DNA of 64,000 bases from Botryllus schlosseri. Its lineage: Eukaryota. Below are positions 1-50,080 of the stretch, piece by piece. The DNA lies in the NCBI GenBank assembly GCA_051294905.1, contig CM119371.1, forward strand, positions 33,420,001 to 33,484,000, in the 5' to 3' direction. The position numbers and the translations under genes were made by a program. How positions within the stretch are numbered: position 1 is the stretch's first letter; each line of letters begins with the position of its first letter. The notes under the pieces were generated by a model, which saw only the letters and a list, made by a program, of their open reading frames with translations, was not told the origin of the DNA and made no database searches.

Positions 1-2304
1 GGTCGCAGATTCTCATGAGCAAGTCATATTTTTGCGTGTCTCGCTTATTGGATATAGTATGCAACAACAGTGACCCTGGATATATGTAAAAACCATCGCC
101 GAATTTTTTGCAATAAATTCAAAAAATACTACATACATATCAACAGATAGTTCTGGCAACGTGTCGACCTATCATCATATACTCTTTGCGGCCAATACTT
201 TAATAACCCTTGAAGGGCTGAGAATTTGCAATGGAGTAACTTGCAAATGTGAGTCTGCAATGTTGGTACTAATCAATGAGCACTTACATTGCTGTGCAAG
301 TTATTCGTCTCAGGTACATTGACAGTAATATTTACAACAATTTCATGGGGTTGGCAGCAGTGGCGTAGCAGCAGGTGCTGTCGCCCATGGCTTTTCTTGA
401 AAATTCCGCCGCATAAGCACACCGCAGCAAATTTCGACATAGTTTCCTGTCCGAGCACTCTTTTCGATAAAAATAATTACAAATAATATGCCGCGTATCA
501 GAAGTTCGGAACACATATAGTATTCGCCTGGTTTCCCGGCACATGTGCAACACGTCCCATTTCATGTTTCCCCATGAAATAATCGATTTCTTTCATGTGA
601 AACACTAACATGAATCCCCCTTTTTTTAAATCAATTATTCTCTCGTATTAAGTGCACGCCTGCTTATTCAGCATATTTCTAGTGACGCGTTTTAGGTTTT
701 GTCCAACTGAATACCTCGTGCAGTCCAATCCCTGAAAGTTCAACACAACTATTTTGTGAACACAGAAGCGATCATCCCGCGATATTTTCAATCTCCCAAT
801 TGCACTAATTTCACCGGTATTGGTCTTGTACACAGCACGACATCGGGATATGGAGAATGTAGCAATTTCAGTCTTCAGGTCCGCCGTATTCATGCTGATA
901 ACAATCTTCCGGCCTAGCGTCTTTGTCGTATTTGACTTGCTAGGATGAACAAACTTTCTGTTCATCATTTTGATCCCCTCGTTCATGAGAACTTTTGCGT
1001 TCGATTCAGTCGCCATGTGACACAACATGCCGTCACCTCCGTACACCCAGTAGCGGGGAATCGATCCTTTCGTATGTCCGTGTGTCCCGGCCAAACCGTA
1101 GTTCGTGACTACAGCCCTATCGCAACTTATCATGACGTCTTTTATTTCGGTCATTTCAACAATTGATTTCAGTTTGCCTTGTACAATCGCATGTATGTTT
1201 TCCCATTGGTGGTATCCATTTGTCGAGTCTTGGCACTCTGCGTGCCGGTAATGGTACATCAATGTTCGTTGCACCCCTTCTTGTTGATATTCACTCAAAA
1301 TATGGGTTACTTCTTCCTTTTTCGGATTAGCAGCACGGGGATCGTCATCTCCTACTGCCATTCCTATCCAATAGGATCGGGACAATCCATCTGACGCGAA
1401 TACTTGCATCGTGCTGAGATGAATCACTTCCTTTATTTTAAACCTAACTCGTAAGAGAAGTAAGTTACCTTCGGCCGTCTTTGTGCTGAGAGAAATGTAG
1501 GCCTCCATAGCTATTGTATTTTTTCTATCAGCCTGGCCATGTTTTTTTATGTGCTGCTGGTACTTCTCCGTTATTGGTTTCACCGCGAATGACTCCATAT
1601 TTGCTGACCACATGGTTACAGATTCTTGTAAATACTTGGTATGGCTTTCCCCTTTCACATTAGAGGGGCCAGAGACAAATGGCTTAAGTGATGGGTCTTT
1701 TAGTTCGCTGTCGTACTTGTACTTCATAGATTGGGGCGCGCTAAGATGACATCGCAGATCTTCCAGCTCAGTCACAAAAGGTTTGTAGACCTCTGGCCAT
1801 ACGTTGTCGGCAATAATGATATTTTCTGGCGTAGCTGAATCAAGGGGCTTATATAGCCATTTTGCTAGCTCTACTGATTGTGCGCACAGGAGCTCAACTT
1901 CAGTTTTTACCTCAGGACTGGTTCCCTCTTGTAAGACGTACGTGATTACCGGACCGTTTACCTTTCTGTTTGGCTTATGCGGTAATCGGGGTTCTGGTGT
2001 TGGTGCGGAGAGGGCGAGGTTTTTTTTCGTCAGCGGGACTTCCCTACCTATTCGTGTTAACCTCTGATCTCGGCGCGTGCCCACGCCTAACGTCACGCCG
2101 CCGAAATTTTCATCTGACGGGGCCCCTTGTTCTGGAGAGACTTGCATCCTAAAATCCCCAGACTCCTCTTTAGTCACCTCTGGGCTATTATCCAGAAAGT
2201 GAGTAGTAGCTGCTTTGGAACTATTGTTGAGTGAAGTAGGCATGACGGCGGCTGTCGTGGGATCATTCCGCACTGATGCATTACCGTCGTCTGGACAAAC
2301 AGCT

Positions 2305-2706
2305 TTGCCTACATCCTCGGGGTCTGCTTGATTCGTTTGACCCCCATTCGCGTCAGCGGGACTTCCTCGCTCGGCACGAATTAGACTGGTGTCAGCAGGA
2401 CTTCCTTGCTCGGCACCTAAAGAGTCTCTTTGATTTCTTGTAACGCCAGCGGTGTTAACCGACCAAACGTTTGCGTCAGCGGCCCTTGCCAACTCGACGC
2501 TCATATTGCCTACATCATTGGAGCCACCTTGATTAGTGTGAACTCCATTTGCGTCAGCGGGACTTCCTCGCTCGGCGCGATTTTGGCAGGTGTCAGCAGG
2601 CCTTCCTTGCTCGGCACCCAAAGAGTCTCTCTTTTCTATTGTAACGTCAGCGGTGTTTACCGACCCAACGTTTGCGTCAGCAGCCCTTGCCACTTCGACG
2701 CCAGCG
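2305..2706 (-). repeat. In-frame 201-bp (67-aa) tandem duplication within the pro-X ORF
   Basis: ARAADANV.SVNTA.VT...RDSLGAEQG.PADT...RAERGSPADANG occurs twice, and the DNA motif gtcagcgggacttcctcgctcggc recurs at ~2352 and ~2553. Confidence 0.9.
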
Positions 2707-3300
2707 CCAGCGGCCCTTGCCGTCTCGACGCTCTGCTGTTCTGCAGCTTTCACCAACCCATCCTTGGTCACAGTTTTGCAAGGACTGTTTCCAATTCTGG
2801 TTCCGTCCTTTTTATCGCGTAAAGTCATACTATGTAGTGTTGCCAATGACAATTCTTCATTATCAGTAGACGGAGTTTTAAATTCAGTATCTATACTCGG
2901 TAATTGTTGTACTTTGTCAATCCATTTTAGCCCCACAATATTAAGAGGAACTCCCTTGCCAGTTGCAAATGGAACTTGCAGTCCGTCAAGAGGTACTATT
3001 ACTAGGGAGTCGACTCGGGACGAACCTCCTATTCCGCTCAATTTCATATCAAGTGGCTGTCATTCAGCCCAGCTTTTCGGATATTTATTTTTTACTACGC
3101 TCTTCATAATCAAATTGGGAATACTGCCAGTATCGGCTAGAAATTTAGTGTCTGTGTTTGTATCCACTAGGTATAGAAGTTGCCCACCGAATAATTCCGC
3201 GAAATCCGGTTGTAGGGGTTTGTCCGGTGAATCAAGGAATGTAAACAAAGGTAACGAGGCATTATGTACAGTTTTAACATGTTGGGGTAATATTGTGTCA

Positions 3301-3344
3301 GGGAGCTGATTCACCGGATCAATCAGCGCCCCCAACCGTTTTTT
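3301..3344 (-). promoter_or_regulatory. -1 programmed ribosomal frameshift signal (slippery heptamer A AAA AAC + downstream hairpin)
   Basis: Minus strand reads TCA AAA AAC GGT TGG GGG CGC TGA in the gag frame. A -1 shift enters the protease frame (R-L-G-A-L-I-D-P). A few nt downstream, GGGG-C-GCTGATT/GATCCGGTG/AATCAGC-TCCC can form a stem-loop. Confidence 0.85.
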
Positions 3345-6076
3345 GAGACGCGTAAACCTTGTTCTAATTCCTCATCTGTCCAGTAAGAGGCGGCGTATTG
3401 ACGCGGCTCTTGTCTATATGAAGGCGCAATCCAGTTTACCTGGCTGTTATTTAGAATTGGATTCGCGGGTGGTCCCCTGGGACCCCATTGGCCCCTATCG
3501 TGCCAGTGGGTTCTATCTCTGTTTTTAGGTATACTATCATAATAGGCCTCACATAGATTCGTTCTTTCTGCCAACGGGGGAGAGCCATGGGATATGAGAT
3601 ACCGATCAAGGTCTGAAATCGTCAATAATCCATTGCTAGTAAGGAACGGACGCCAGTTGCGTTCAGCGGATTCCTTAATACGCTGCGGCACCGGTCGTAC
3701 ACGTTTACGGATTATCCATCCCAATTCGCTATCTCTAGTGAGTACCACATTGTTTAGCCAAAGGATAAACTTGGCAACGCAATTCCGGGATTGATGCCCG
3801 GGGGCCTTACAGTAATAACATACCGAAAGGGCCTGGCCCTGGGAGGGATTCAAATATAAACCTAATGGGGCAAAGATATTAGCATTGCCAAGGAAATAGT
3901 ACCTCTCACCTTGGCTTTCCGCGATGTGGCGAGCCTCCTGACTGTTCGACGGAGTAATTTGCGTATTATCTGGTCCCACTCCAGAATCTTGTGTTCCTTC
4001 TGTTCGTGGGCTTCTTTGGCTTGAAGATCCTGGTTGTTGACCGGATTGTGCTGACCCTGAAATATGTACAGTCTGGATATCGGGTTCAGCAGAGGCGCCT
4101 TGTCTAGTAGTTTGCGCTCGTCTGCCTGGCCCGATACCACTCGATACGTTAGTAGGACGCCGGTTTAATCTTGCGTATCGAACAGGATTTCGGCGTAATT
4201 GTGTGACCTGTGCTGTATTCACAAGAGGCCGTGAAGGGACCACTCTGGGAGGTTGAGGTGGCGTTGCCTCGAATTCGGGCGGAGGATGGGAAAAAGATAA
4301 GGTGGGCTCCGGAAGTACTCCCAGTTGTCCATTACCGTTAGGGTGAGTGGGATAGCTATGTATCACAGGATCAGCGGGATGTACATTATAGATATGTACA
4401 GGCAGCAAGGGCGACTTGTTCGTCTGAGTTCTTCGGGTTCTCCGAGTCGTCGGGCTCGATTCCTGTTCATCTTGGAATTCCGAGTTCCAGAACAGTTGGA
4501 GTTCTTCCGCGACTTCCCGCCAGGTGTTTTCTTCCCACCCCCGTATAATCAACCTGAGTGCTTCCGGCAGCCGCTGTCTCAAATTGCGGAAAAGTCGCAG
4601 TCCGTCCGGGTTGTCCAAAATTAGGTCATCCATATCTATCTCCAGTTGTTTCAGAGCACTGTTAAGTAGAGGTAGGGGTTCGTCTTCCCAATGATACTTT
4701 CTTCGGAAGTTGTTGACAATTCTCTCATTATTCACAATTCCTTGTGGGTTGGAAAGTGACAGCGACCTCATAACCGATTCCCAGCTGGCGTTTCCCGAGT
4801 TTGTGTTGAAGAAGTTTCCAAGTTGATCAGCTTGTTTGTAACGCCCAGCATTCTCTAATTTCTTCTGCATTGCATTCATCAATATTATATCAGCGTCAGT
4901 ATTACCTTCACCGTGGTGAATTCGTCTCATCGTGTTCTCCATCCATTTAAGGAGAGGCATATCGCCCGGATCCAACATCAACTGTATCATTTCCTTTTCG
5001 GACTGAAATCTAGCAGGTATAGTTAGCGCTGGGTTTACCATTACCTCCATCGGTCGCGAGCGCGGCTGAATTGGGCGGTCATCATATTCCATTTGTTGTA
5101 CAAGTCTCTGCAGTCGGGATGTCGTCGCCCCTTCAGAATCAGAATCTTCTGGTTGAGCCTCCGAGTCTCCTTCGTCATACTCCTCCCCTTCTCCACGGAA
5201 AATGACGTGTTTAGCGTTGCTCGGCGATTTTCTTGCCCGACTACTTCGTGTCCCAACATCACCCAACTTGTCAATGTCCCGCCGCTGACCCTTCGCATCT
5301 CGAGGTCTCGACACCAGTTTCTGGAATGAGGAGAGATGTTCACTGTCCAATTCAGAGTCTGTTTCGCGTTCCATTCTCATCGGTCCTCCTGCCGCCACTC
5401 CCGTAGGTGTCCAATACGCCATGGGCGTGTTAGCACCACCTTTGGTCTTCATCGCAGGATGCATGCTCCCTTTTGTTCTAAAATTCGGAGCCATCAGTGA
5501 ACGGGCAACCGGGGTCGGACGAGGTGGATCATCAGTCTTCACGTCTGGGTGCGTATGGTAGACCGCCGTTACTGTATGACAATCTAACCCCTTTTTCACG
5601 GCCAAGGTGGGCATAGGCTGAGTCTTCCTGACCGTCTGGATGGCTGGTGGATCGTAGGCCGGTGGAGGTGCTGTGGGCATGACAGCCAGGGCGTGAGAAG
5701 GATGTGGTTTCTCTCCTACCGCTTGCGTATGGGCGTTACCCAACTTGAATTCTGTCTGCAAAATTTCGTTTAATACGTCTGTGGAAACCTTTCCAGTAAT
5801 TTTTGAAGTGGCGTCACAAACGGCCTTCAGGTCAGCTTGAGCCCGCCGGACGTCTTTTCTTGCTTTTTCCAGCTCCTTCACTGCCTCAGGCAGGGTCGTT
5901 TTGACCTCCTTTAGGACTCTTGTCTGGTCGGCCACATCTTTAGCAAGTTGCCTCTCTTGGTCTTGCACATCTTCGTGACGCTTTTGGGTATATTTAAGCA
6001 GTCGGATTCCCTGCTTTAGCTCCGCCGATGCCTCCGTTGGTTTCTTCTTTTTAAATAGTTTCAAGATTCTTCGCAT
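3323..6076 (-). CDS. gag: Gag-like polyprotein, 917 aa
   Basis: Intact ATG ORF. It has a basic N-terminus (MRRILKLFKKKK), a coiled-coil-like region at about aa 15-95, PTAPPPAY at aa 134-141, a helical capsid-like segment (...LRQRLPEALRLII...TWREVAEEL) and a CX2CX4HX4C knuckle CYYCKAPGHQSRNC (3779-3820). It ends at a frameshift site followed by a protease. Confidence 0.88.
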   Translation of the reverse strand: MRRILKLFKKKKPTEASAELKQGIRLLKYTQKRHEDVQDQERQLAKDVADQTRVLKEVKTTLPEAVKELEKARKDVRRAQADLKAVCDATSKITGKVSTDVLNEILQTEFKLGNAHTQAVGEKPHPSHALAVMPTAPPPAYDPPAIQTVRKTQPMPTLAVKKGLDCHTVTAVYHTHPDVKTDDPPRPTPVARSLMAPNFRTKGSMHPAMKTKGGANTPMAYWTPTGVAAGGPMRMERETDSELDSEHLSSFQKLVSRPRDAKGQRRDIDKLGDVGTRSSRARKSPSNAKHVIFRGEGEEYDEGDSEAQPEDSDSEGATTSRLQRLVQQMEYDDRPIQPRSRPMEVMVNPALTIPARFQSEKEMIQLMLDPGDMPLLKWMENTMRRIHHGEGNTDADIILMNAMQKKLENAGRYKQADQLGNFFNTNSGNASWESVMRSLSLSNPQGIVNNERIVNNFRRKYHWEDEPLPLLNSALKQLEIDMDDLILDNPDGLRLFRNLRQRLPEALRLIIRGWEENTWREVAEELQLFWNSEFQDEQESSPTTRRTRRTQTNKSPLLPVHIYNVHPADPVIHSYPTHPNGNGQLGVLPEPTLSFSHPPPEFEATPPQPPRVVPSRPLVNTAQVTQLRRNPVRYARLNRRPTNVSSGIGPGRRAQTTRQGASAEPDIQTVHISGSAQSGQQPGSSSQRSPRTEGTQDSGVGPDNTQITPSNSQEARHIAESQGERYYFLGNANIFAPLGLYLNPSQGQALSVCYYCKAPGHQSRNCVAKFILWLNNVVLTRDSELGWIIRKRVRPVPQRIKESAERNWRPFLTSNGLLTISDLDRYLISHGSPPLAERTNLCEAYYDSIPKNRDRTHWHDRGQWGPRGPPANPILNNSQVNWIAPSYRQEPRQYAASYWTDEELEQGLRVSKNGWGR

Positions 6077-6097
6077 GGCAATAATAATAGATTCAAT

Positions 6098-6544
6098 TTA
6101 TAGACCCGTAGTAGAGTTTTCGAGGTCCCGCTTTACGCTGGAGATAGTCGGGTCGTCCAAGGTAGGCCGTATTGTTGTTCCGAGTGATGAGTTGTGGTCG
6201 TTAGTCTCGAACTCCGGAAGTTTAGAAAGCGAGTCTTTAGTAATGATAAATTGGCGTCCTGCAGATATGTTTTGCGAGCCAATAAGAGTTGGGAACGGTG
6301 TTGTAACTCCGTTGTTAGGTCTTCCGTTTCCAATCGGAACTGTAGTTGGAGAAAACCCCGGTACTAAATGTAAATATATTGATGATAACGTGACTAACAA
6401 TGAAATTACAGACGCAATCAGGGCCACGACCAATACTGTTTTAACGATGGTCGTCTTTGAACACATTGATAGGTCCACGTGCTGCACTGGAAGTAATAAT
6501 CCCAGCTTGGTGCCTCCAGTACGTTTATAGTGCAGCTCCAGCAA
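6098..6544 (-). CDS. Small putative single-pass membrane accessory protein upstream of gag
   Basis: Hydrophobic stretch VLVVALIASVISLLVTLSSIYL followed by a Thr/Ser/Pro-rich tail with N-x-S/T sequons (NIS, NSS, NST). Its stop lies 21 nt before the gag ATG. The true start is uncertain (track start is TTG; internal ATG at MCSK). Confidence 0.5.
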   Translation of the reverse strand: MLELHYKRTGGTKLGLLLPVQHVDLSMCSKTTIVKTVLVVALIASVISLLVTLSSIYLHLVPGFSPTTVPIGNGRPNNGVTTPFPTLIGSQNISAGRQFIITKDSLSKLPEFETNDHNSSLGTTIRPTLDDPTISSVKRDLENSTTGL

Positions 6545-6901
6545 CGCTTGTTACTGCGAGAGTCCACACTTGGTTCGATTTTACTTCACAGTGCTGGTTT
6601 TCCTTATCTGTGTTGATGTTGTGACCTTGTAGCATCCACAAATGGTGATTGAAGCAGTGGTAAGGGTAGCAGCAGCTGGATCCAATCAGGCAATGACCTC
6701 CAGGTCCAGAACTCTAAACTACTCTGGTATAACTAGTAAATTAAACCTTAATACAACCAAATACTCCAATAACAACCATGCAAAGAGGAATGAGGTTTCT
6801 ATGAGTAAAACCAGATAAAATTGGTAAACATGCTTCAATTATATTACAAGTTTTATCTAAACCTATTCATCATAATGCACGAATAATAAACATTCTCAAT
6901 A

Positions 6902-7011
6902 CTCCAAGGTTTGTTTACGCATATAATTCATGCGACGGCCTGTCCTGCCGAAAAGCAGCTCCAAGGTTGGTTTACACATATAATTCATGTGACGGCCTAT
7001 CCTGCCGAAAA
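6902..7011. repeat. 57-bp tandem repeat, 2 copies
   Basis: ctccaaggtt.gtttac.catataattcatg.gacggcct.tcctgccgaaaa at 6902 and 6959. Confidence 0.85.
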
Positions 7012-7906
7012 ATTCATTCATGAAATATTGTGTCATTACACAACACTCAATTACAATAGTATTTTGATCAAAATCTACTATATCTCTGGGTTCGATGGTA
7101 CTGGTGTTTTAAGCTTTTTATTCATTCGTATGTACCGTGTCTCACAGACCATAGATCTGATTTACCACGAATCCTAAACTTCTTTCCCGCTAGGGTGAAG
7201 GGTCCCGACACTAACATAAGGCGTGGTCGGTTTATAACGCCTTACTGTACGAGACGGTACAACAGAGATTATTATAAACACTCATTGTAACAGGTTTGAC
7301 TTTGTAGAGAATCTGTGACGTTATTGTAGGGAGGGATATTTATTTTAGTAACTTGTGACATTAACCAACGTGTCAAGGACAAGTATTTTCCTAATTTAAT
7401 GTCGTTTACACATACACCCTAGTTATCCCTACAGGGCCCAGCTATTTACATATATGGTAGTTAGTCACAAGTCTCACTTAGTCAAACCCTGCTATCGTCA
7501 TGCACTATTATTAATAGTTTACATCAATACGGTTAACACAAAACAAACAAATATATATTAATCAGGTACCACTCGATTAAACGGCGACCCAAATATGTGT
7601 GTCAACAACAATACACATACCAGTAGGCTACATTACGCAATGATTCAATACGTAGTAATATGACCTCACCCTCAGTCAACAACAAATGCAATTATGCAGC
7701 GACAACTTACTATTCACATAATAAATGTCCATTAACTCTTAACTATGTTCAGGGCATGAAAATGTTAGCGCCATTTAAAGCAACCTGATAGTAATTATCA
7801 AGAACATAGTAATTATAGTATTTGAACATAATAAAGCGAACTAGCTTCACTACACAACTTTGTTTCCAGTCCACTAGACAGAAATACGTTTATCTTGCCT
7901 GCGCCG

Positions 7907-8735
7907 TCAAGCTCCATACACTTTGATCTTTTGCGATATTTTCCCATTGCAGAATATGCAGTGCTCAGCATCGGACGAACATTCTTGACACAGACCGGGA
8001 TCAGGGTAATTTCACTCCTATTATTCTTGCATTGTTTGCAAAGTATGGTTTCTTGTATAACCATCAGATTCTCAGCAATTTCTTCATCATATGCAATTTC
8101 CAATATTGATGGCGTCCCCATTCTGTTTCTAGCATAAACAGAGTTGCCCAGTCTACTCTTACTGTTGCGCAGTTTGTGTATTTGAATCGACTGGCACTAT
8201 ATCGAGTAGTATCAAAGGGTCTTGTACGACATCGTTCACAGTGAAATGAATATTTGATCGTCTGCTGGTGGCTCTTTTCTGTGTGACTTCTGCTAAATCT
8301 TATGCTGTCCAACTGCATCTTCTTGGCATCTTCCTCTGACAATCTGGTTCGAGCGACGCGTATTTGCGTTCCTATTTCGGCGGCCGGTGAAGGTTTTTGT
8401 GCTCGCTTTTTAGGCGTAGTCCATGTTTACACCGCAGCTGAAACACTTCACTCTATCTTTGTATCCTGACCAATAAAATCTCGTGGCCGCCATATCAGTT
8501 GGCAAAACTGAAGCTTCTTTTGATATGGACGAAATGTCACCAATCTATAAAATTCAGCTCGGCGATTGCAAGGTGGAATATAGCTGCCGTTTTTTTCGGG
8601 AGAATCGCGATATCGTGGAGTGGTGATTCCATCTTCTTGTATAACTCGTTGTCCTCTCGGTACATTAGTGCTTGACGGAACAGGCTTTCGACAAAATCGT
8701 GTGGAATGAATTGATATGTCCTGTCATCGATTCAT
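7907..8735 (-). pseudogene. Intronless inhibitor-of-apoptosis (IAP)-like gene, BIR + C-terminal RING, disrupted by frameshifts and deletions
   Basis: Manual translation across frameshifts. 8558-8415 gives AEFYRLVTFRPY/KEASVLPTDMAATRFYWSGYKDRVKCFSCGVNMDY, the N-terminal two-thirds of a BIR. 8070-7907 gives NLMVIQETILCKQCKNNRSEITLIP/LCQECSSDAEHCIFCNGKISQKIKVYGA*, an IAP-type terminal RING whose CGH is deleted at the frameshift. Confidence 0.85.
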
Positions 8736-9281
8736 ACGATAGCTTAACTACACGGGTGTGTAGAATATCTTGATATCGTATTTAATCTGTCTTATAATTT
8801 CGAAAATGAGAATGACACTTGTACTTCATGACGCAATTTATGCGTACGTCTATAGCAAAAAAATTAACTCATTAAATTAACTCATTAAAATAACATTGTC
8901 CCAACTCTTGTACAGATATCGATATAACAAACGGTTGACACACCCGCTTCGTAAAACGCATGTGTCGACATCAGGGCGGACCTATGACTAACGTGGTTCT
9001 TGATCATCGACACATCTGTTTCGGAAAACAAATGTGTGGATGGGGCCAATTTATTTGCCATTTTCAAGTTCATATTATGTGTTCTAGGGTGTTTTCTAAC
9101 CTAATTAACATACTATTTTATTCCGATTATATATACATCACTATTACTACACATATAGGCTATCATATATATCTATTTATTCAGGTTATATATTATTTCT
9201 TCATTAAACATAGTTTAATTAAACCAGATAGGGATGCCAAATCATTGAGTGTACCCTAAGACTTTATTAGTCAGCCCTATC

Positions 9282-9443
9282 AATTTAGTTTTCAAGGCTT
9301 CTCTGAAAAATCTAGCATTTTCAGTCCTTTGCCTATTAATTTAATCTTCCAGGCTTCTCTGGATAATCGAGCATTTCCAGTCCTGTGCCTATTAATTTAG
9401 TCTTCCAGGCTTCTCTGGATAATCTAGCATTTCCAGTCCTGTG
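9282..9443. repeat. 56-bp tandem repeat, ~3 copies, in the retroelement leader
   Basis: aattta.tcttccaggcttctctggataatctagcatttccagtcctgtgcctatt-like units start at 9282, 9338 and 9394. Confidence 0.9.
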
Positions 9444-9748
9444 TTGTCACCCGTGGCAAAATCAGACCATTGTTTCCAATGGCGGAGCCTTAAATTAGAC
9501 TCATCGGCCAATGTCACATAGATACTCTGATACTCCTGATAACGTATGTGTCATCATCAGGAATCTCAGTGATCTCAGCGATTTCAACCCTTGATCGAGA
9601 GACATATATTCTTGTGGTACCCAGACTGAGTGCTCGATCTCGGATTCCTTGCAGCTTAATCGTGGACACATGGTATCACTACTAATATTTCATAATTGGT
9701 GTAAATTAATCATAAATTTACACACGAAAAGTTTTCAGATCACATGGT

Positions 9749-9761
9749 TCACGTCGGGGTC
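9749..9761 (-). promoter_or_regulatory. tRNA-Trp primer-binding site (partial, lacking the initial TGGT)
   Basis: Minus strand GACCCCGACGTGA matches 13 nt of the classical tRNA-Trp PBS TGGTGACCCCGACGTGAT. It is directly preceded by ...TTCA (a possible LTR end) and lies upstream of gag on the same strand. Confidence 0.65.
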
Positions 9762-10654
9762 TGAATGCGATTCCGAGCCAAAATCCAATCCAAGTCCGAC
9801 TCCAACTTCATATCTTATCTAAGTTATGTTATATAATATTCTGTTAACCTACAAGGGCATTTTATCATTATATATTCATTTTATATATTTGATGAAGTTT
9901 TTATTTGATTTTTAAATTCTTTTATCAATTCTTTTCGTGGGTGCTTACTGCTTATATATATACATACTGCAACACTTATATTTTATATACATTGTATTGC
10001 GACAATATATTTGTCCCTCCTTCCTCCCTATCGTGGTTGGAATGCAGCCTCTACTCGCGTAACCATGGGTGTCAAAAAGTGAGATTTTCTCACAATCTAC
10101 TTATATATACGTCATTGCTACATTACCAACACCATAGTGATTTTATGTACTATATACAATGAATTTGAAATCTTTTTCCAAAGCTGTTCGCTGGGTTAAC
10201 CGGAAACGCATCTACTTCTAGAGCTAAGGGAGGTGCCATGAGCTAGGGACAAACGTACGACACAAAATATACCTATGTATACATAATTACAACACACATT
10301 ACTTTGCGGTTGGATGCTGTCCAAAAGGTAAGAATTCAATTCGTATAGGTGATTCTTAAGATGTTCTACGGTTTTATTCAAAAAGGGTTACTTATCTCAT
10401 TGTTGTGAGCTATTGGGTCGCGCCATAGACGGTTCCGGTAGCCGACACCAGGCACTACCCCAAGCAGCGAACACCGTAATATCGGCTCTATGCCCAAGCT
10501 CAAGAAATATATCTATACTATAAAAGAAATGCTTCAACAAAACTTCATCATATCGAACAAGTTTCTATAGATAAATGAATAAATAAATAAATGGCGTATT
10601 TAAAATGATTACAATACCTTTTCAAAATAAACACACGGTGGCTCTCTTACAACA
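9762..10654 (-). repeat. Putative 5' LTR
   Basis: On the minus strand it begins TGTTGTAAG (10654) and ends ...TTCA next to the PBS, and it contains AATAAA motifs. There is no second copy in the window, so the boundaries are a guess. Confidence 0.3.
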
Positions 10655-12345
10655 TAGGTGGTCGTTGTTTGGAGTTATTAAGTCTTCACATCCGTTTACT
10701 TCTACTGGTTATTATTCATAGTGGGTCTAGAAAATAGTTTATAAATGCCACCATTTCAGTTCTTCTCTCTCTCTCTCTCACACACACACTCAATATTATC
10801 TTAGGGAAAGGTTTTCAACCAAAACGGTCACTATCTATTATTTGTGTATATCATGTCTTCAAAATTGACCTTACACTATTGAACTAAACTCAGTTAGATT
10901 TGGCCTTAATGCCTCGAACTCAGAAGGTCACCAGGGTTCGACAAAGTACTTTGCTAATATCAAAACTCGTGTTACTTGAAGACTCAGACCTTATTGCTCT
11001 AGTTTTTGGAGTTTGGGGCCATACTATTGAGTGATTTATGATCTACAATTGAAATGAACCGACTATCAACCATAACGTAACTAGAATACTCAGCAATTAG
11101 CAAAATTATCAAATCTGCAATCTTTCGTCAGTTCTGACATTTTTTAGCTTAAAAGCAAAGACGTGTGATTTACGACAATCAGTGTAACATCATATGCTCA
11201 TAATATTAGGTTTTTCCGCTGTCAAAGGCTCAGTAATCTGCATGGGATTATTGTGAGATCGCATCTTATCATAACAAATATCATGTATCGCCATTATTGT
11301 TGTCTTGTCTGCTGTGTAGTACAGACTGAGTTAAAAATGAAATACTCTCTCCCTCTCTCAAAAAACACAGAGCCTGAACAAACGTAGGCAAAAATGCCCT
11401 CTGCAAATAGGTAACTTCACCAGTAACACTGAATTTACTAAAAAATGCGATGAGGCTACCGTATTGACCTAATCTGCAAATTACTCTTATAATAGTGCAG
11501 AAAACTGACAAGGGAGTTGTCAACAGGCTACAGCAGCATGCTGTTCAGAAGGGTTATTAACTGTTGATGAGTGGGAGTTTATCAATACATTTTCTTTTTA
11601 AGCCTATAGAGGTCTTGTTACAGTTTAATCCTGATAGATACCACAGTATGGACGTCTATTCAGCTTGAGCTTACATCTATACTGGCATTCAGGCAAAGAA
11701 AATGGCTCTATATTTACCAATTAGGAGTGAGTTTCAACGCAGTCATGGTTGGTGATACCATTGGTGGCCAAAGTTCACCGAGTGTGTGATACCAGCATTG
11801 ATCACTGTTGCTGAGACGTTGCTTGGATTGGGCTGAATCCTTATGACGGTCTACTTGATTGACAAAAAAGAACTCAGGTAAATTTCAGCCACACAAGTGG
11901 CTTAACTATTTGGCATCATTCTGTGGTAGATGCCTCAAAACTTATAAATCTGTCTTGTATACTGGCCTGGACAATTCCAATTGATGTACCAATGATGTGG
12001 ATGCGTTAATACCACAAGGTCAGATAAAGATACATACTTTATCAAGATTTTACATGACTTAACAGGCAATTACTTAGTAGTGGCCACTCTTGAAATTGCG
12101 AGATGCATCATTAGACTAATGCAAAAATGACAGATAACGTGTCACAGTTTCAATCGACGAAAATTTATTCAAGAAATTACTGATGACTATTTTATGCAAT
12201 ACTTGTGCAATTTTTTACGAAAATGACGTAGTGCTATACCTAATCTCATGCCAAGACTATACTAAACTATCCAGAAAGACTACGAATTGTTCCGCTACGG
12301 AACGCCCTTGGGTGTTTCTTCCCCCATAAGATCTAGCATCTAAGT

Positions 12346-13264
12346 CAAGGGTCGGCAACCTACGGCCCGCGGGCCGGATCCGGCCCGCCAAGCGAAATCG
12401 TCCGGCCCGCGACGAAATAATTAGTTACCACAAGAATACGGCCCGCCGTTTCGTAATGAGTTCCAATCTGCAGTGCAGCACTGCTTCGAAAAATGTCAAA
12501 ATTTATAATGTTTTCTTCCACTTACGGATGATGACTCCGGAACATGTAATTCACGCACCTACGGGGCTCGTTCACTTTCCTATACTGGAGGAGAGTAAAC
12601 CTAGTTACAGCACTATACATTTGTAACTGTGATATACCAAATTTAATCAATGAATTTCCATCCGCTTTTCCGACATTCGTTCTGTACAAAATAAATTCTG
12701 ACTAACCAGTAAGCTACTCCGGCTAATGTGGGCGCCAATACCATTGCCAGAAAATTTCAAATGGGCCCATTTGAAATGCCATGCAATTGAATTGAATGAC
12801 AAATTTCATACAAAGAGCATATCGCTGATTGACTTTGACAACGAGTACGTTCTTGATATGGGTCTTCATCCCAGCTTGACCAACAATGCAAAAGAAATAG
12901 CATCGACTTTTGGTAGCACGTGCGCATGTGAACAATAGTTTTCAACGATGAAATTCACGAAGAGCAAGCTAAGATCACGTATCCCAACGCACATTCAGAA
13001 TATGGCCTGATTCTAGCTTCATCTGACTTGTTACCAGAAGTTGAAAACCTTTCACAAAGCAAGCTGCGCCCTTTGTCACATTTATGCTGCGTTGTTGAAG
13101 TGTTTTGCTCTTTTTGTGATTTGTATGATTGAGAATGCAGCATTGTAGGGTAATATACCGACGTGACCGTTAAATATAGTATTAGGAAAAATTCCGGTCC
13201 GGCCCGCCAAAATGTTGTGCACCGGAAATTTGGCCCGCGACTAGCAAAAGGTTGCCGACCCCTG
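12346..13264 (+). mobile_element. Internally deleted hAT (Charlie/SPIN-like) DNA transposon with a transposase C-terminal remnant
   Basis: TIRs caagggtcggcaacc / ggttgccgacccctg and a perfect 8-bp TSD ATCTAAGT (12338-12345, 13265-13272). The remnant FGSTCACEQ*FSTMKFTKSKLRSR matches the hAT C-terminal dimerisation region. Confidence 0.92.
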
Positions 13265-15189
13265 ATCTAAGTCATTGTAATTTTGGACAACCACAATCTT
13301 CTATGCTCTGTGACACCTTTAAATCAATCGGTGTCTATTAACCTTTAATTGGTTACCTAAAATAGGGCATGTAAATTTATCATTCAGGCGTTGGCAAGAC
13401 CGCAGTGCAGAACCACCCGTTTTGAAACTTGCCTTGACGGGAAGAAGTACCGAAGTACATAAATAGCTATTCTTATCGCGATACAAAATACTGCTTATCA
13501 TTTTTGAGAAATAGCTAGGTTGGCTAACCCCGTTACGGTGGTATTACTGGCTCACTGATCATTGCTTACTAATAAGATTAGTTTTGGTGCCTTGGAATAA
13601 AGCCACGCCGGTAACAAAATATTATTTAGTGAACCTGTAATTCTGCCATAACTAATAGTGTCGTTCATTGAATAGTAAACACATTTAGTATTGTCTATGA
13701 TTCAACATTCATAGGTATAACGACCCGCTGGACCCGTGTGAATTTTTCAAAATGAATTATTACTAGAACGGGAATTAAAATCAAATATCAATTAATATTA
13801 AAATAAAGTAAATTCAATCAATTATAGTTTCGCCATCGCGATGATTAATACACCTACAAGATGGTGCTTTTTCTTTAGACAGGTCAGTTCCCTAAATGTC
13901 ACACGGATATTCTAAATCTGGATCTGGAGCATGACTCGCGGTGGACATCTCTAGCCATCTTGATGTAAACATAACTCAGAACAGAGCAGCCGCCAGCATC
14001 ACGCATGAAGAAACTTGTACTCCATCAGTACCCCGCACTACACACCGACTTCAATGCTGCCAGTCAAATCACTACTTCGGCTAAAGGTTTGTTTTATCCT
14101 TCCCAAGCCACGTATAGGCAGTTCCAAACACGATATATAGAGCCCAGTGGTCATATTGTCAACACGGTACAATCAAAGTCAAGATTGTATTAATTCTGTA
14201 TCGCATTGCTGCATGCTGTATATAAGAATGAGTTCGTGTTTGCCCATATGTAGTTAGTGATGTAGTTAGTTGATCAACTCTTGTCTTAGTAATGATGCAA
14301 TTACTATTAACGATATGATCAAAGTAAAATTTCAAAGTAGTTAACTTATGGTTTACCAATGTAGAAGTAATTACAAATACATTTATTTTACAACATACAA
14401 CGCGAGCCATATACATACATTGATTAGCCTACAATATAGCCTCAGAAGAAAGTAATAAGCTAGTTTGCCAAGTTCACAAAGGTTTTTTCACCACAGAGGA
14501 CTATGGCCATAGATTCCAATGTTGAGTAGGACCGTGTGTGAACGATGAACATGCATTTGCTTTATGCCCACAATCTACTTGGTACAGATATCGCAAGCTG
14601 CCTTTTCAGCGATGGCGAATAGAATTTCAATTAGTCTTCATCCTTACCAACATAGGCATTTTCTAATGACTGAGATTAAGTAATCACTATCTTAGATTGG
14701 TATAATTAGTATTTGGAACAGATCTCTAACCCACTAAACTTATAAAGCAGTGTGAAATTCGACTTCGTTACGTACAACGACAGCTTAGAGAAACAATACC
14801 AGGTATCATATATGTACTAATCTGCTTGTCCAATTATTTGCTGACAATTGACACTATCTCTTACCTTCAGTGTTGCAAGCATTATTTATGCTCAATCCAA
14901 CCCCTCTAACAGAGCCCGCAGTCGAACAGTGTTAAATAAAAAGAAAACACAAACCAAATCACAGTATTTTCAGTCACGAATCATCAACGGGTCATGTTTT
15001 ATCATCATGGACTAGAAATGTGACGTAAAGCTGATCTTCCACGGCATGGTAGCTTTTAAAAGTGATGTGATAGTGTAGTTTGTTGAGATTTCAGTGTTTT
15101 CATAGTAGTTTTAGGTTGAACTTCAAGTTCTTATATCTAAAAAAGAGATGTGGCACTGTAATATATTGTCGAATACTTGAAATTCCAAA

Positions 15190-15262
15190 ATGCCGTGGCG
15201 GGCCGCACAAAATGCTCTCGCGGGCCGCATGCGGCCCGCGGGCCGCGTGTTTGAGACCTCTG
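15190..15262. mobile_element. hAT-type MITE end fragment
   Basis: gcgggccgcatgcggcccgcgggccgcgtgtttgagacctctg: ggcccg subterminal motifs and a hAT-like TIR ending in ctg. The partner end was not found. Confidence 0.6.
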
Positions 15263-15473
15263 GTTTAAATACTATTAATACGGTGTCCGAACGCAGAACA
15301 CTGATAACCTTGCTAATATATATGCTTGGCTTAAAAATTTCTATGCATTCAGTGCTACCTGCAATAACCCTAGTTATTGGGAAACACTTACAACTCTCAG
15401 ACCCCCGTAAACACTACCTGTCCAACGCATAGACAATATCGAACTTGCTGGATAAAGAAACTCCATTGAACCT

Positions 15474-15648: not shown

Positions 15649-18600
15649 ATTGAACCTGTGATTTCACCCTAGGCTACGCCTCATGAGCTGATTACTCCGG
15701 CATTTACCCTAGGTAACCTCTAATCAGATATTGATTTCCAGGTGTGGGTTTCACGGAAAATATATCCTGGACTTTGCCAGCCAATAAGCATTTAAAGCAA
15801 TTCGCCCTGTGCACATGAAAACTTAATCGAACACCCAGTGGCGAAAAGCGTCTAATTTTAATACTCGGCCCAAATCACCAAAATTAATGCTAAATTCAGA
15901 TTGAGTACTGGATTGGATTGGATTGGATTGGGCCCATAGCCCCAAAGATTAATCCCCATATGATTGGGCCAGCATTTTAGTTGAAAGGGTATCACTGATT
16001 TTCCAACCATTCATTTTTTCACTAGGTATCTCAGAATGGGACAGAACTTCTGCTGGGTCAACATTTCCAGCTGGACGCGACCCCAATCTGAGAATTAAAA
16101 GAGCCCTTGATTTCAACACTGATGAAAATTTTGGACCACCAATGGGCTTTGTGAGGAAAATCAAACCGTCCGGAGGACTATCACGCACTCTTTCGCACTC
16201 CATCTTTGAACCAAAACTAGCAGTTAAGACGGGGCCGGTGAATACCTGACACATCATGTGCCCAATTCATATCATTCAATTCATGTAGTTGGGTATCCGG
16301 GCTTTGTACTTGACACTGTGTAAAAACTCTTCTGGGTAAACTATTTAGTTTTGCTGGAATACTGTTCGCGCCAAGACATGGACTTTTATTAGTGATCTGA
16401 TAACACTTCAAAGTTTTAACAGCAGGGGTAATATCTTAATGTCAGATCTTTTTCATCACATTTGAGCTGTACTATCTCCATGCCCATGCCCATTTATGAC
16501 TGATAACTAGGTCCTGTACCGATAAAAAAACAATTTCTCCTAATAATTATATTTATTTTTATGTTTGCCATATCCATAAATTCCTTATATCATCTATGGG
16601 TGTGTAAATTTGCAATATCTCTTCTATAGTATGTTCGGTAAAAGTAATAATTTGCCACAAGCCGAAGGGTTTGAGGACCCCTGGTGTTTGTGTGAACTGA
16701 TGCCCTTATAATCGTCTGTTGAACAGAGTAGACAGTACACGAAGAACGCTGTAAGCTCATCAAGGGCGCAAATACTTCACTATTAGGGTTATACTGTATA
16801 CAGGTCGTGAATTTGTCTTAGTCTATTGTCGGATAAGTTCGTCAAACATAGGCCTCAAATAGAGTAGGGGAGGTCGACTCCTCCAGTAGGTGGCGATGCC
16901 CAAATCGGTTCCTTGATCGCTTACTGATCCGCACATACAAGGAATAAATGTATTTGATACAAATTTTAGGTTGATGGCCTAGTAGCCGACATCCCACTCA
17001 CTACAGTTAGCCTACTTCAATTTGTTGCCAGCTTGCATTGATTTAGTGATACCCAATACGCACCTTACAATCACTGCAACGGCCCGATCCACAACGAACG
17101 ATATGACGTAGCTTTTCTTACTCTGGTGGTCCTGCTGACATATCGGTTCATGCGAGGACAATGGCAAACAGAAGGCATTTGGTGATGTTGTTGTATAGTT
17201 TGCTCTTGGGGTAGCAAAAATACACCAGCCGTTCAAACTACCCATTTAGTCCTAGTTTTGGATTTCTTAAAATTTAACAATTCTAGTTGTGCGACGTAGT
17301 CAAAGATAAAGGTTGACTGTGGCTGTGAGCCACACTATATCATGCAAGGCCGGAATCTGCATACGGGGAGTTCAGAATTCAATCGTGGACCGTATGTTAC
17401 CCGTCCATGATATATACTAAATTATAGCCCATTTTACTGCTGAAACGAGTTAGCTTTTGGCACCAGATCATAATTGTTGCTTTGCCCGTGTAAGTGATGC
17501 CCTGAGTAGAAGTTGGTCACGATATAAATTGGTATAATATACGCGGGTATGTTGTCGGGCTTTTATCATAGACATTCGTGGACCCTAGACAGTGACAAGT
17601 TCCGTAGCGGAGGGGGATTATTAGATATATCATTTCGGTGTTATCGTCTATGGCGGAAAAGCCCTGGCCTACTTGAGAAATATTTTGTCAAGTGCTAAAC
17701 CCTGTGTACGTCAATAATCATCACGTAAGTGGTGTAAAAATAAAACCCAATTGGTCATAAACGCCTTCATCAATTATATTAAAGAGGGAGTGACGCTTAT
17801 TCCAAACCACACACAAGGTAGGTACAGTTCCCACCGTGCAGGGCCCCATTTTCTATTTCTTAGCTAGACTATTCCCAATGTAAGATTTGGATGGTATAGC
17901 TATATACCCCATTTCCGTGTTCGCAATATCCACCAATGATATACTATATACATCAAAGGCTCCCCTTCAACACGTCAGTATACATAAGTACCCTCTACCT
18001 ACATTTTAGTTTTCTGAGTCCGATTCTAATGTCGGGCATAGCCTCCCCCTAACATCTTAGTAGCCTTGTATTGCTATCTCAACTTTCCTCCTTCTTCCGT
18101 AGATACCCAAGTGTTCTGATATTGACCATGCCAATGTTGGGGTTTATATACAGTTTTCATGGCGTGTAATAATCTATTATTCTACGATTTGTGTATGGGG
18201 GGAAGCTATTTTAAGGTATTTTTCGGGGTACACTGAATAATTAATCACTTACGGACAGCCGGCCAAGGACCATTAATGGATTTATGCCATAAAATCAGGT
18301 TACATCAGAATTTTTTAACAGTTAGTGACGTCAAACAGCACTCTGAAAATGCTCTTAACAGAATTAATGTGGTTTTCCCACTGAGATGTCACTCTCTAAT
18401 GGTTTTTCTTGACATTAAGTAACATTAAATCCCCTTAGCAGCCGTTAATGTTGTTTTTGCACTCTCCGAGTCTTAATGCACTTTGCGCATTAGATACTGT
18501 GTGTTCGCCATTTTGTGGTCTTTATGCCCGCGACATTGCTGCACTGTCAGTCCGCAAATGGTCAGTCCCGCGGAGTCTGCTACATCACTGCCATACGTAT

Positions 18601-21600: not shown

Positions 21601-23972
21601 TCGTCACCGCGAACGGAATATTCATCAATTATTTATAACAATCGTCAGTAACGAGCAAACTAGAAAACAAAAGATTATCGACACGCGATTATTGCTTGCG
21701 TGATTTCTGTGCTAATTTACCCCAATATTTTCAAGTCTAGCCGTTATTCTAGAATTTACACAAGTTGGTGAGCAATATTCGTAATGGCCGATAAATTCCA
21801 TCGGCTCATATTGCTCACACTCATAGTTATTCTTCCACTGCGGTCACTGCCGTCCCAAACACGTCAATGTCCCCTTCACCTCGGAATCAAAAGCGCACAA
21901 GCACAACACATGCGCGTCCAGCACGCCGCCCAAACATCACATGGTCGACCGAAAAGATCATCGCTCCATCAAGCATGCCGGACCTGACGTGTGGAATAGC
22001 ATCCCGCCGGCCATCCGACACCCGACGAGCATGCCCGCACCCAAGTCGAAACACAAGCAATCACCACTAAATAAACACCAGTCCAGGTGCCGGCAACCTT
22101 TCGTATGCAGCATGCCAAAATATCTAAAAATGTAAAATATTACCAACCCGCGTGCCAACCATTTTCATTTTCAATGTTTCAAGCAAGGAATCACACTGAC
22201 CACCTATCTGCAGAAGGTACCGGCATTGGTTACGTCAGATATTCTTACAGTATTGGTCGATGAAAGGTATAAATTTTGGTCCCTACCACACTAGACCTAT
22301 ACCGTCTAATGTACGTAATATGTGCAATTGTGCATCATTTAAATTTAGTCGCGTAATGGCCGATCTTCAGTGGTTTCCTTGATCGTTTCCAAGTCTACTG
22401 TGTTCGGTACCATAGCCAATAAGCGACAGGCCGATCAAAGATGTTATGAAGAGATGGTCTCATGATGAAAAATGTCTCAACCCCTGTACCAAGGAAGTCG
22501 GTTTGATGTAACTATTGGTCTGACACTAGATTTGTCTGCAAAGCTCCAAAGATTGCGGTATAGCGGTAAAGGTTGTCTTTGCTCCAGACATATTAGAATT
22601 GCTTACACGTATCAGGCGAAACCAAAATAATATATCCTTTCGTGAGACCAACCCAATTCAAAATTCGCATTTCGACACGGGACTCATTATCTGTGTGGAT
22701 CTCATATGAGACGTGCGGCTCAAGCTCCGCGTCGGTCATTTCGGCCAGGGACTTATAGAACTCTATATATCCCTGATTTCGGCGCCTGGACATATCATTG
22801 TCGAAAGTTTAGGCCAATATGCGGTGGTTATTATATTTAGATGCTCTATCGCCGTCAATCATTCGGCAACGCATACAGCACACGCAGCAGTCGCACTTTG
22901 CCCGAAACATGCGAACCCTAACGTGAAAATGGCTAGCGCAAAAATACTGGTCCATATAAAATATTCGCGGTCCCACAGGCTGCACAGTGTACCCTCCTAG
23001 ACTAAAGTATCAAAGCAGTTTCATACGATATTAGGTTGCCGTATATATTTTCGTGGGTTTCGCAATATCAAGTAATTATACGTCATGGTAAATCTCGCGA
23101 AGAGCAAACAATGTTATCTTTTCATTGCATCACATTTCCTCGGTGCATTGAAAGATAAAAATTGCTAATAAATGATGATTATATTGACCGCTGACCTCCT
23201 GCGAAATGAAATCATTGTGCCCCACATTCTCGCATCATTACGCACTAATATCACTCGCAAATATCTTGCGGAAAAGGCGGACTTATGCTTGCGATAACAA
23301 TGCACGCACACAAATATTATTATTATTGAAATCAGACTTAGTATGACGGTTATAAATTTGTTCGCCTTACCTTATATGATCTCTCCATTATCAAATGTGC
23401 GCGCAAACGATCGGTATAATTAATTTCACCGTTGTCTTCCATAATATGAGGCAGTTCAGTGTAATGTGAAGCCGCTGGAATTGTCCGGGTTTTTATCCAC
23501 ACAATCAGAAGTGTATCCTGTTGAAATCCCTGCACGCAAGTCGGCACTTACTTGAGCTAGTTCTTGTGAGGTTTTGGCTCGTTTCAGTTTTGGCTGATTG
23601 ACGCCCCATGTGAGAAGAGGTATTGCGCTTATGTCGTGATTGGACCAGACCTAACGAAGTCCCGGATATCCTTCTTCAGATAGCTTATTACCAATGCACC
23701 TTCTCTCCTATTCCGGGCTTTAAATTTATCTGTTCCGTATATAGTACAAATAATCTTGAGCCCCGGCCAAATTGCGGCCCACGTGAAACATAAATCAATA
23801 CATACTGCATCACATCACATCTCAAATCCCGTGTTCCCTACTGATAACGGCTTATCTCCAGGCGTTTAGTATACTTGACCCAGAAGTTCTATATTGCTTG
23901 AGAAAGAAGCCCATCTCAGCGTTTATAAGGCCAAAACAATAATGACAAGAAATGGATACGAATGTATTAGGC

Positions 23973-34993: not shown

Positions 34994-35794
34994 ATCTAAA
35001 CCTTCATAGGTCTTGGTGCACCGTGGTGCGGTAATGGCCAACGCCGATATGCCCATTTCTATAAATCTTGCGTATTTTTTCTTGGGGGAAGAGTACCCCA
35101 AAATTAAGATATTTGGCAACTGGAAATCGCGAAAATCAAAATTGTGTTCTGTGCATCCTTCAATAATTTGAAATCTTTTTATATCTGAAAACTCCTCAAA
35201 TTATGAATGACTTTTTTAGAGAGACACACATTGAGCAAGCACATGCATTGCAGATTGCACCAAAGCCACCCATGGCATGTATAATTTTACTGTCTTAAAT
35301 TAGAACTTCTATGAGTAAGTTTCTGTGTCTTCATTCTACACTCAGCTCAGATAAGTGTTCTTGAGATGGTCTATCCACAATGTCTGAATCTCAAAAACTT
35401 CAGATATTAAATACTAAACCAGCTAACAGAACACAGGTCTGTACAAATATCAGTAATAATCACCCACGTTACAAGAACTGCTGCAGAGACTTTATTAAGC
35501 GTCTAACCGTCGAAGCGGCTAGACGCGAAAGACACAGGAGCAACACAAGACATCACTACTATAACAGGTAGCGGTATAGAGCACGACTGCCACATATCGA
35601 CTGCAATTGTACATGTGAATATTCCTATGCATTTTATGAAACGTCCATGAATTTACGTCAGGAAATATTGGAGAACAAAATCGACTAATTGGACGGAGAT
35701 GAAAAAAAAAACGTTTTTCAGATACTTGAATGTATTACATGTTAATGAATTCACCATTGGAGTACCCCTTCGTATATGTTGTCCCCCATGCATT

Positions 35795-36730
35795 TCATCC
35801 ATGATTGTTGCTGCCAGTATGCACATTCATATGTCGCTGAATGTGATTCTTCCGAGTAAACGCCCTCCCACATAAATCACATTTATGATTTTTGATGCCA
35901 GCATGTATATACATATGAAGCTTTAGGTGACTATTCTGAGAAAATGCTTTTCCACATACATCACATTCATGATTGTTGTCACCAGCATGCATATCCATAT
36001 AGATCTTGAGCTCACGCTTTCCAAAAATTGCTTTAACACATACATCACATTCTCACTTTGTGATGCCTGCGTGTATATCCATATGAGGCTGGAGTCGACA
36101 CTTATGACTGAATGCTTTTCCACATATATCGCATTCATGACTTTTGATTCATCAACGTTTTTTTTTCATATGTAGCATGAGGCTATTCTTGTGAGTGAAT
36201 TCTCCCCCACATACTTCACATTTATGTTTTTTGATGACAGCATATATCTTCATGTGAAGCCAGAGGTTATTCTTATGGGCGAATACCTGGCCACATATAT
36301 CATATTTAACACTTTTTCTGCAATCATGCGTATCCATATAACGACTGAGGTCAATTTTCTGAGTAAATGCTTTCCCACATACATCACATTGATGATTTTT
36401 GATGCCATCATGCATATCCATATGACGACTGAGGTCATCCTTCCGAGTAAATGCCTTTCCACATAAATCAGATTTTTAATGCCTGAATGCATCTCCATAT
36501 GAAATTTAGCACATTCTTCATAATGAATGGCTTACCGCAAACATCACATTCGTGCTTTTAACACCAGCATGCATATCCATATGATACTTGAGGACATGTT
36601 TATGAGTAAATGTTTTCCCACATACATCACATTCATGGTTTTTGTTGCCAGCATGCATATTCATATGAAACTTGAGGTCACCCTCTCGAGTAAAAGCTCT
36701 CCCACATACATCACATACCCATATGGTGTT
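35795..36730 (-). pseudogene. Frameshifted continuation of the C2H2 array (~11 further fingers, several degenerate)
   Basis: Fingers continue in shifting frames (ORFs 36518-36826, 36152-36421, 35795-35998), ending ...KCDLCGRAFTRKNHIQRHMNVHTGSNNHG*. Confidence 0.8.
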
Positions 36731-49710: not shown

Positions 49711-50080
49711 TATGGCGGGGTGGCGAGCTAACGAGAAACCGGGGGTGGCGAACTAACGTTTTCGTCTTATGGCGGGGTGGCGAACTAACGTTTTCGTCTT
49801 ATGGCGGGGTGGCGAACTAACGTTAGTAGTATATATGATCGCTCGTGACTTGGTGTTTTTAACATGGGGTAGTATAGGGCCCGCTGGTGAGGTGCCTGAA
49901 AACCCGGGGTGATGACCCCACCCTTTTGACCCCCCCTTCCGCTGGTGAGGTGCCATGTGTTCTTATGGGTGCGGCGATGACCTGCCATGGCTTGTTTGGT
50001 AGTGAACTAACGTTGTGGATATAGGCTGCGGCGATGACCTGCCATAGCTTGTTTGGTAGTGAACTAACGTTGTGGATATA
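49711..50080. repeat. Subterminal repeats of the left arm: 32-bp GGCGGGGTGGCGAACTAACG units and 57-bp units (mirrored at ~62893-63322)
   Basis: 32-bp period (49771, 49803). The 57-bp unit occurs twice in the left arm and three times in the right. Confidence 0.9.

Follow-up and report, generated by a model that had tools for sequence, protein, structure and literature searches.

An internally deleted Pol ending in a Tpt1/KptA domain, within Merlin-type ends, in the genome of Botryllus schlosseri

What follows the protease of a retroelement when no reverse transcriptase can be recognised behind it? The question is raised by a locus at one end of a 64,000-nucleotide stretch of Botryllus schlosseri DNA (contig CM119371.1 of assembly GCA_051294905.1, positions 33,420,001 to 33,484,000; hereafter the window), where an earlier note, made from the letters alone, had seen a retropepsin and a long open frame with no reverse transcriptase (RT), RNase H, integrase or dUTPase motif. 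Here we report that the flagged region is the pol of a dead, internally deleted retroelement copy with two large in-frame deletions, that its last domain is related to the RNA 2'-phosphotransferase Tpt1/KptA, and that the gag-pol-Tpt1 block forms one end of an insertion of 23,374 bp whose ends are of the Merlin type, a type known from DNA transposons.

The open reading frame (ORF) listing gives a stop-free frame of 803 codons on the minus strand (3059-648), which bears out the long open frame of the note, and a Gag-like frame of 924 codons, stop to stop, on the same strand (6097-3323). The catalytic DTG of the protease (3134) sits in the -1 frame relative to gag, and one in-frame stop (3060-3062) separates it from the 803-codon frame, which is therefore not continuous with this motif. 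Pfam returned nothing useful for the whole frame. For the C-terminal 439 aa, solved Tpt1 enzymes came up as weak matches (E 0.11 and 0.16); the NCBIfam RNA 2'-phosphotransferase models matched the last 177 aa (E 1e-5). A profile made from nine relatives, without the window sequence, aligned to the frame in four blocks: (i) the protease, (ii) the RT N-terminus (aa 370-481, E 3e-24), (iii) a relic of the RT palm (aa 478-541, E 3e-9), and (iv) the tail of RNase H together with Tpt1 (aa 540-741, E 5e-39). For the palm relic the score was 26.1 bits; of 500 shuffled sequences, 413 yielded any domain at all, and the highest score among them was 2.6. The frame skips about 120 profile positions ahead of this relic and about 235 behind it, and three residues of its YxDD region are gone, both aspartates included. 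Judged from the sequence, RT and RNase H activity have been removed by the two in-frame deletions and the loss of these aspartates, with Tpt1 left in frame. The relative P0004 lacks the DD as well and has the palm relic joined to RNase H as in the window copy, so there is more than one copy of the deleted form.

These results change the picture drawn in the earlier note in several respects. Its statement that RT and RNase H are lacking does not hold, as the profile assigns the region to relics of both and to Tpt1; the roughly 430 aa seen after the linker consist of RT and RNase H relics and Tpt1, except that the last ~75 codons are read through out of frame, the C-terminus of Tpt1 running on in another frame at 874-791 (tblastn). 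The extra domain lies after RNase H, and an unknown domain between the protease (PR) and RT is thus the wrong description. The notion of a gag-pro-X element without pol is true of a working pol in this copy; this state, however, arises by deletion, and X is Tpt1/KptA, as in the intact relatives. Searches with pieces of the window did bear out the absence of integrase and dUTPase, and the 67-aa duplication in the linker was also recovered (period 201 nt, copies at 2305-2500 and 2506-2701, 85% identical); by eye, the relatives P0023 and P0024 have repeats of their own at this position. Protease pieces of the window had no Pfam match, and the protease of the relative P0018 matches RVP (PF00077, E 6e-4). 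Frames beyond the stop of the ORF were considered as decayed RT and found no support.

The relatives show what the deleted copy has lost. A phmmer scan gave 20 of them and later searches more, and seven (P0003, P0009, P0022, P0023, P0024, P0041 and P0055) span the stretch from RT/YxDD to the end of Tpt1. In all seven the order is RT-RNaseH-Tpt1 after the protease or the linker; six end there, and P0022 runs on past Tpt1 into an ExoIII-like EEP domain (residues 882-1113, E 2e-18), a nuclease of ExoIII/APE-like type. No integrase was found in any of the seven proteins, and PF00665/PF17921 occurred in none of nine family matches (five of which end before or within Tpt1) versus 13 of 14 distant matches. 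The Gag-Pol of the family is, in short, PR-RT-RNaseH-Tpt1 without integrase. At locus L001, which ends before Tpt1, the order of gag, heptamer and pol is identical; its gag ends on the identical heptamer, and the capsid-like core of the window Gag is 28% identical to it (E 7e-26). Two clusters, of 215 and 31 members, contain full-length copies that lie on separate large contigs, suggestive of recent activity in the genomes concerned, and lineages only 31-43% identical carry intact RT, RNase H and Tpt1. The named relative P0014 is from Styela clava, and the NCBI protein XP_039263204.1 of this species, annotated as 'probable RNA 2'-phosphotransferase', is by its sequence a member of the element family. 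Searches elsewhere gave little: no family relative among 94 pattern matches in viral contigs, L001 as the only family member among the four loci to which 197 matches in metagenome contigs reduced, none among longer proteins in a single-sequence search, and no usable match in the ESM Atlas.

Taken alone, the window Tpt1 falls under the cut-offs (Pfam E 0.026, NCBIfam E 1e-5), and PF01885 is above the Pfam cut-off in 8 of 20 relatives of one set and 3 of 4 of another. A profile of nine RNase H-Tpt1 sequences, one of them from the window, matches ten solved Tpt1 sequences and no others at E 0.01; the best are 8tfi and 9ld3 (E 1e-15 to 1e-12), PhoTpt1 8tfi leading with E 1.2e-15, and the mammalian TRPT1 entries 7yw2 and 7yw3 are not among the ten. 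The tetrad Arg14, His15, Arg62 and Arg115, reported to be essential in Tpt1 (PMC12170183), is matched in the window by R605, H606, R648 and R701 (ORF numbering); the full tetrad is also present in 11 of the 13 relatives, of 16 aligned, whose sequences cover the four positions. In the HGT motif the histidine is kept, the glycine is replaced in every row that covers the motif, and the threonine is kept in relatives and is alanine in the window. The domain of the family resembles cellular Tpt1/KptA/TRPT1 (PF01885) in both lobes, the R-H-R-R tetrad, GH[ST], H-x-T and R-x3-H, and differs from it by its fusion after RNase H, the replaced HGT glycine, and a conserved Cys and His following the RH motif. 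The RNA lobe of the family (window 1250-1200) has a conserved H-x-R-H-x-x-C-x(6-7)-G-x-H pattern with an extra Cys in some members, a possible metal site.

To place the element among reverse-transcribing elements, a 35-row tree of RT and RNase H (RT-RH) was used, rooted at the midpoint; L009, P0069, L001, P0055 and L004 were left out as short or near-duplicate, and the row of P0041 is longer than intended. The nine family rows group together on one side of a branch (100/100) with a long stem, and the 11 caulimovirus-like rows, assigned by genome layout and not by name, form a 100/100 group of their own with the family outside. The long family stem joins the long-branch row P0065, where the tool warns of attraction, and the placement among the 15 gypsy-like rows is not fixed. 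Best matches of the family profile among solved RTs are 8r0s (E 2e-38), which we take to be the RT of cauliflower mosaic virus, and Ty3 (E 4e-32). By this grouping the element would not be a member of the Caulimoviridae; it is like these plant pararetroviruses in having PR-RT-RH without integrase and in its best structure match, 8r0s, but unlike them has a gag-pol with a frameshift, a Tpt1 domain and the ends of a transposon. With the Ty3/gypsy retrotransposons (Metaviridae), which carry long terminal repeats (LTRs), it shares the CCHC Gag, the -1 frameshift signal, the PR-RT-RH order and stretches like a primer-binding site (PBS) and a polypurine tract (PPT), whereas it differs from them by Tpt1 in place of integrase, the lack of an LTR pair, inverted-repeat ends, an 8-bp duplication against the LTR-type target site duplication (TSD) of 4-6 bp, and an RT-RH on a long separate branch. 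DIRS/Ngaro elements likewise lack integrase and have an additional enzyme as the last part of Pol, although this is a tyrosine recombinase and they have no protease, and Teratorn is a virus-like genome inserted by a DNA transposase, although it is a herpesvirus-piggyBac fusion without RT.

The ends of the element were located from DNA contigs. In DNA run X1, positions 1-600 of the window belong to a repeat of very high copy number. Contigs that part from the window after 507 number 22; the 20 letters with which they go on occur exactly and once in the window, at 23890-23909 (chance 0.01), so that the far end of an insertion was predicted from empty-site contigs and then found exactly. A second 25-nt loose-end pattern had no match at three mismatches, with a looser likeness near 23911 by eye. 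The insertion, 508-23881, is 23,374 bp long, has GG...CC ends with 24-bp imperfect terminal inverted repeats (TIRs), and is flanked by an 8-bp TSD, AGAAGTTC; apart from the left TIR itself, its partner at the far end is the only one of 127,952 positions with at least 17 of 24 matches. The gag-pol-Tpt1 block ends about 280 bp from one end of it. Merlin ends are described as TIRs of 24-462 bp, often imperfect, with terminal GG and a TSD of 8-9 bp (PMC8101967), and the insertion falls within this definition. Since the element ends at 508, the earlier suggestion of a pol further downstream, left of the window, is wrong; the remark that 1-647 has no long ORF was correct (longest there 86 aa). Merlin/IS1595 DNA transposons thus share the 24-bp TIR, terminal GG and 8-bp TSD with this element, which differs from them by its 23.4 kb length, the gag-pol-Tpt1 block that it carries, a relic of an inhibitor-of-apoptosis (IAP) gene and the lack of a detected transposase in this copy. 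We regard it as a new variant of the Ty3/gypsy-type retroelement that is neither of the Metaviridae nor of Merlin as defined.

Could the block nevertheless be an ordinary LTR retrotransposon with its integrase in a separate ORF, of which this copy lost integrase and LTRs and came to lie in a Merlin element by chance? The RT-RH is of the Ty3/gypsy-caulimovirus type, the window copy is heavily deleted, and relatives are known from their Pol proteins and not from their flanks, all of which would suit such a history. On the other hand, the PPT-like run lies only ~160 bp beyond the Tpt1 stop, and the element ends a further 108 bp on, with no LTR remnant, and seven of seven full Pol proteins are without integrase. 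Neither an LTR pair nor terminal redundancy was found, 1-700 shares no repeat with the sequence upstream of gag, and position 616, tried as the start of a 3' LTR, has no partner repeat, the site being accounted for by the TIR and TSD ends. We consider this explanation the least probable of those weighed here.

A second possibility is that the block is cargo of a giant cut-and-paste Merlin transposon and that RT does not copy the unit. Ends and duplication of the DNA-transposon type, a PBS-like site 17 kb from the far end and the missing terminal redundancy would be expected of cargo; yet the block lies between PBS- and PPT-like sites, many copies in the divergent lineages have kept RT, RNase H and Tpt1 intact, and Pol is everywhere without integrase, so that some partner is needed. 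We hold cargo to be unlikely. A retroelement anatomy together with insertion of the transposase type is, by comparison, quite likely in our judgement.

On this anatomy a cycle can be proposed. Gag particles of intact members would package RNA, which RT would copy from the PBS- and PPT-like sites; Tpt1 would enter the particle as the end of Pol and act on nucleic-acid ends. A DDE transposase of the Merlin/IS1595 type would then probably insert the DNA through its inverted repeats, being supplied in trans or decayed beyond detection, and a circle joined at the TIRs would put the junction between the PPT- and PBS-like sites. RNase H leaves 5'-monophosphate ends. Tentatively, Tpt1 could cap these ends with ADP-ribose at the expense of NAD+, which would shield them from 5' exonucleases and from premature ligation until insertion. 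Such capping of 5'-monophosphate RNA or DNA is reported as a second reaction of Tpt1 (PMC12170183), and ADP-ribose caps are reported to resist XRN1, APE1 cleaving the abasic junction left when capped RNA is ligated (PMC9458441).

We rank capping first and the healing of ends second. In the latter case, Tpt1 would prepare primer tRNA or broken genomic RNA for extension by RT, stripping off 2'-phosphates or terminal phosphates, and the ExoIII-like domain of P0022 would be a second end-healing tool. The full R-H-R-R tetrad, driver of both classic steps, is kept, and an EEP nuclease does follow Tpt1 in P0022; however, in PMC10622864 animals are described as without a ligase making internal 2'-phosphates, the fungal ligase that makes the classic Tpt1 substrate being absent from Metazoa, and the family does not conserve Lys60 and Tyr74, which contact the 2'-phosphate; this makes healing a rather doubtful role. 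It is improbable, furthermore, that Tpt1 serves counter-defence or metabolism (NADP/NAD turnover, masking of RNA from host sensors) or is a passenger. The IAP relic and the reported acceptance of NADP(H) by Tpt1 (PMC10622864) would agree with counter-defence, but the fixed fusion after RNase H and the tetrad kept in distant members fit a role with RT intermediates better, and a passenger would decay.

Altogether, it is tempting to speculate that these elements are an animal, virus-like reverse-transcribing class without integrase or LTRs, in which RT copies the whole TIR-bounded genome, perhaps by way of a circle closed at the TIRs, a Merlin-type transposase inserts it, Pol-borne Tpt1 ADP-ribosylates or heals the ends, and deleted copies spread in trans; we give this full reading somewhat less than an even chance. 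Several points weigh against the main reading, the anatomy with insertion of the transposase type. First, copying of the whole TIR-bounded unit by RT, with both TIRs regenerated, is a conjecture. Second, no transposase was detected in the element by Pfam, applied to 100 short ORFs and, over 18.5-23.9 kb, to all six frames; over 9-18.5 kb the Pfam search covered ORFs of at least 62 aa only, and a relic that is decayed or divergent may have escaped. The best hit of a 70-sequence IS1595-like profile, at 4.2 bits, lies outside the element. Third, the depth of RNA runs X23 and X21, read to 6% and 3%, is below 1 across gag-pol. Fourth, the absence of integrase rests on Pol proteins, and the genomes of relatives may hold a separate-ORF integrase or LTRs. 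Besides, with the HGT glycine replaced throughout and the Lys60 and Tyr74 positions varying, the activity or substrate of Tpt1 may differ. Finally, set against P0004/P0002, which are probably a single related copy, Tpt1 (100/135) and the dead palm relic (18/22) are conserved to a like degree, and no extra constraint on Tpt1 after the deletion can thus be claimed; its selective retention was considered and is unsupported, and the open frame may reflect how the finding was picked.

Coordinates are collected in Table 1. Within the element, a Cys-rich stretch (23009-22300) that by eye resembled a Merlin transposase relic had no match from Pfam, a plasmid tblastn or a 70-protein IS1595-like profile from 117 loci. 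Gag aa 141-148 (window 5654-5677, minus strand) hold overlapping PTAP and PPxY-like motifs, and its N-terminus is basic, presumably late-domain features as in budding enveloped viruses. The PBS-like stretch at 6498-6518 is, we assume, like the 3' end of tRNA-Thr; ARAGORN found no tRNA gene in the window, and Rfam on 1-12000 gave only two chance matches. About 230 nt upstream of the PBS-like site lies a leader-like head with which thousands of RNA reads of other transcripts begin; 3,027 reads of run X23 and 122 of X21 run past 6770 into a tail that resembles an adapter, no longer following the window there, and diverge at 6734-6739; we take the tail to be adapter and the head at 6747-6770 to be a spliced leader. 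DNA depth rises at 6600-7200. Further inside are a unit of 56 nt repeated three times in tandem (9276-9443), inverted-repeat pieces and, judged by eye, a nested hAT-like transposase fragment at 12340-13270 and 15180-15270, and a stop-interrupted frame at about 17200-18000 (minus strand) that by eye resembles a decayed protein gene, its short ORFs having no Pfam match. Outside the element, a C2H2 zinc-finger array gene with an 84-nt period lies at 35717-38315 (minus strand), and 49967-56156 and 56818-63007 form a perfect inverted duplication of 6.19 kb, an assembly artefact or a foldback element, each arm of which holds a 192-codon ORF (50255-50833, 62141-62719) that by eye resembles an adenovirus/Polinton-type cysteine protease and has no Pfam match.

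Table 1. Positions of features of the element in the window.
Feature	Position	Strand	Basis or remark
TSD, 8 bp, left copy	500..507	.	identical to 23882-23889
Left TIR, 24 bp, imperfect, starts GG	508..531	+	17/24 match reverse complement of 23858-23881
PPT-like run A7G5	616..627	-	by sequence, putative role; 108 bp inside element end
Out-of-frame ORF tail	651..872	-	tblastn of P0002, P0003, P0006, P0007 changes frame near 870
Tpt1/KptA RNA 2'-phosphotransferase domain	791..1274	-	NCBIfam NF002013 E 1e-5 (below curated cut-off); frameshift near 873-885
RNase H C-terminal tail, to SDGLSR	1377..1439	-	profile and tblastn; SDxLSR aligns to Ty3 RNase H end
RT palm relic, in-frame deletions either side	1440..1613	-	profile positions 500-560; E 7e-4 and 7e-5 vs P0003, P0009
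RT N-terminal part	1617..1952	-	48% identity to P0005 223-332; profile 264-377
Low-complexity PR-RT linker with 67-aa duplication	1953..2870	-	repeat search
Retropepsin, DTG at 3134, one stop at 3060-3062	2871..3254	-	alignment to relatives
Candidate -1 frameshift signal: A AAA AAC heptamer (3344-3338), then hairpin	3296..3344	-	fold -21.9 kcal/mol, single value without shuffle comparison
Gag, CCHC knuckle	3323..6097	-	zf-CCHC E 5e-4
Upstream ORF with hydrophobic stretch	6098..6550	-	ORF listing; no Pfam match
PBS-like stretch, begins TGG	6498..6518	-	by sequence
Spliced-leader-like head, then GT	6747..6770	-	RNA reads leave window there
Decayed IAP gene	7813..8731	-	BIR PF00653 E 1.3e-6, above cut-off, 8413-8544; RING-like end by eye only, no match
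Right TIR, ends CC	23858..23881	-	matches left TIR
TSD, 8 bp, right copy	23882..23889	.	same 8-mer as 500-507

To our knowledge, integrating retroelements of the LTR type are taken to have an integrase or a tyrosine recombinase as an invariant component. A literature search by title, with most subscription journals and Repbase outside its coverage, returned no paper that describes a retroelement with Tpt1 or one with Merlin ends. A family of many copies whose Pol ends in Tpt1, and which lies within Merlin-type ends, hints at a third route of integration and makes the boundary between class I and class II elements less sharp; it would be a categorically new kind of element if copying by RT and insertion by a transposase both act on one unit. 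It also offers a concrete candidate substrate for Tpt1, the intermediates of RT and RNase H, beyond fungal tRNA splicing and where 2'-phosphate junctions are absent.

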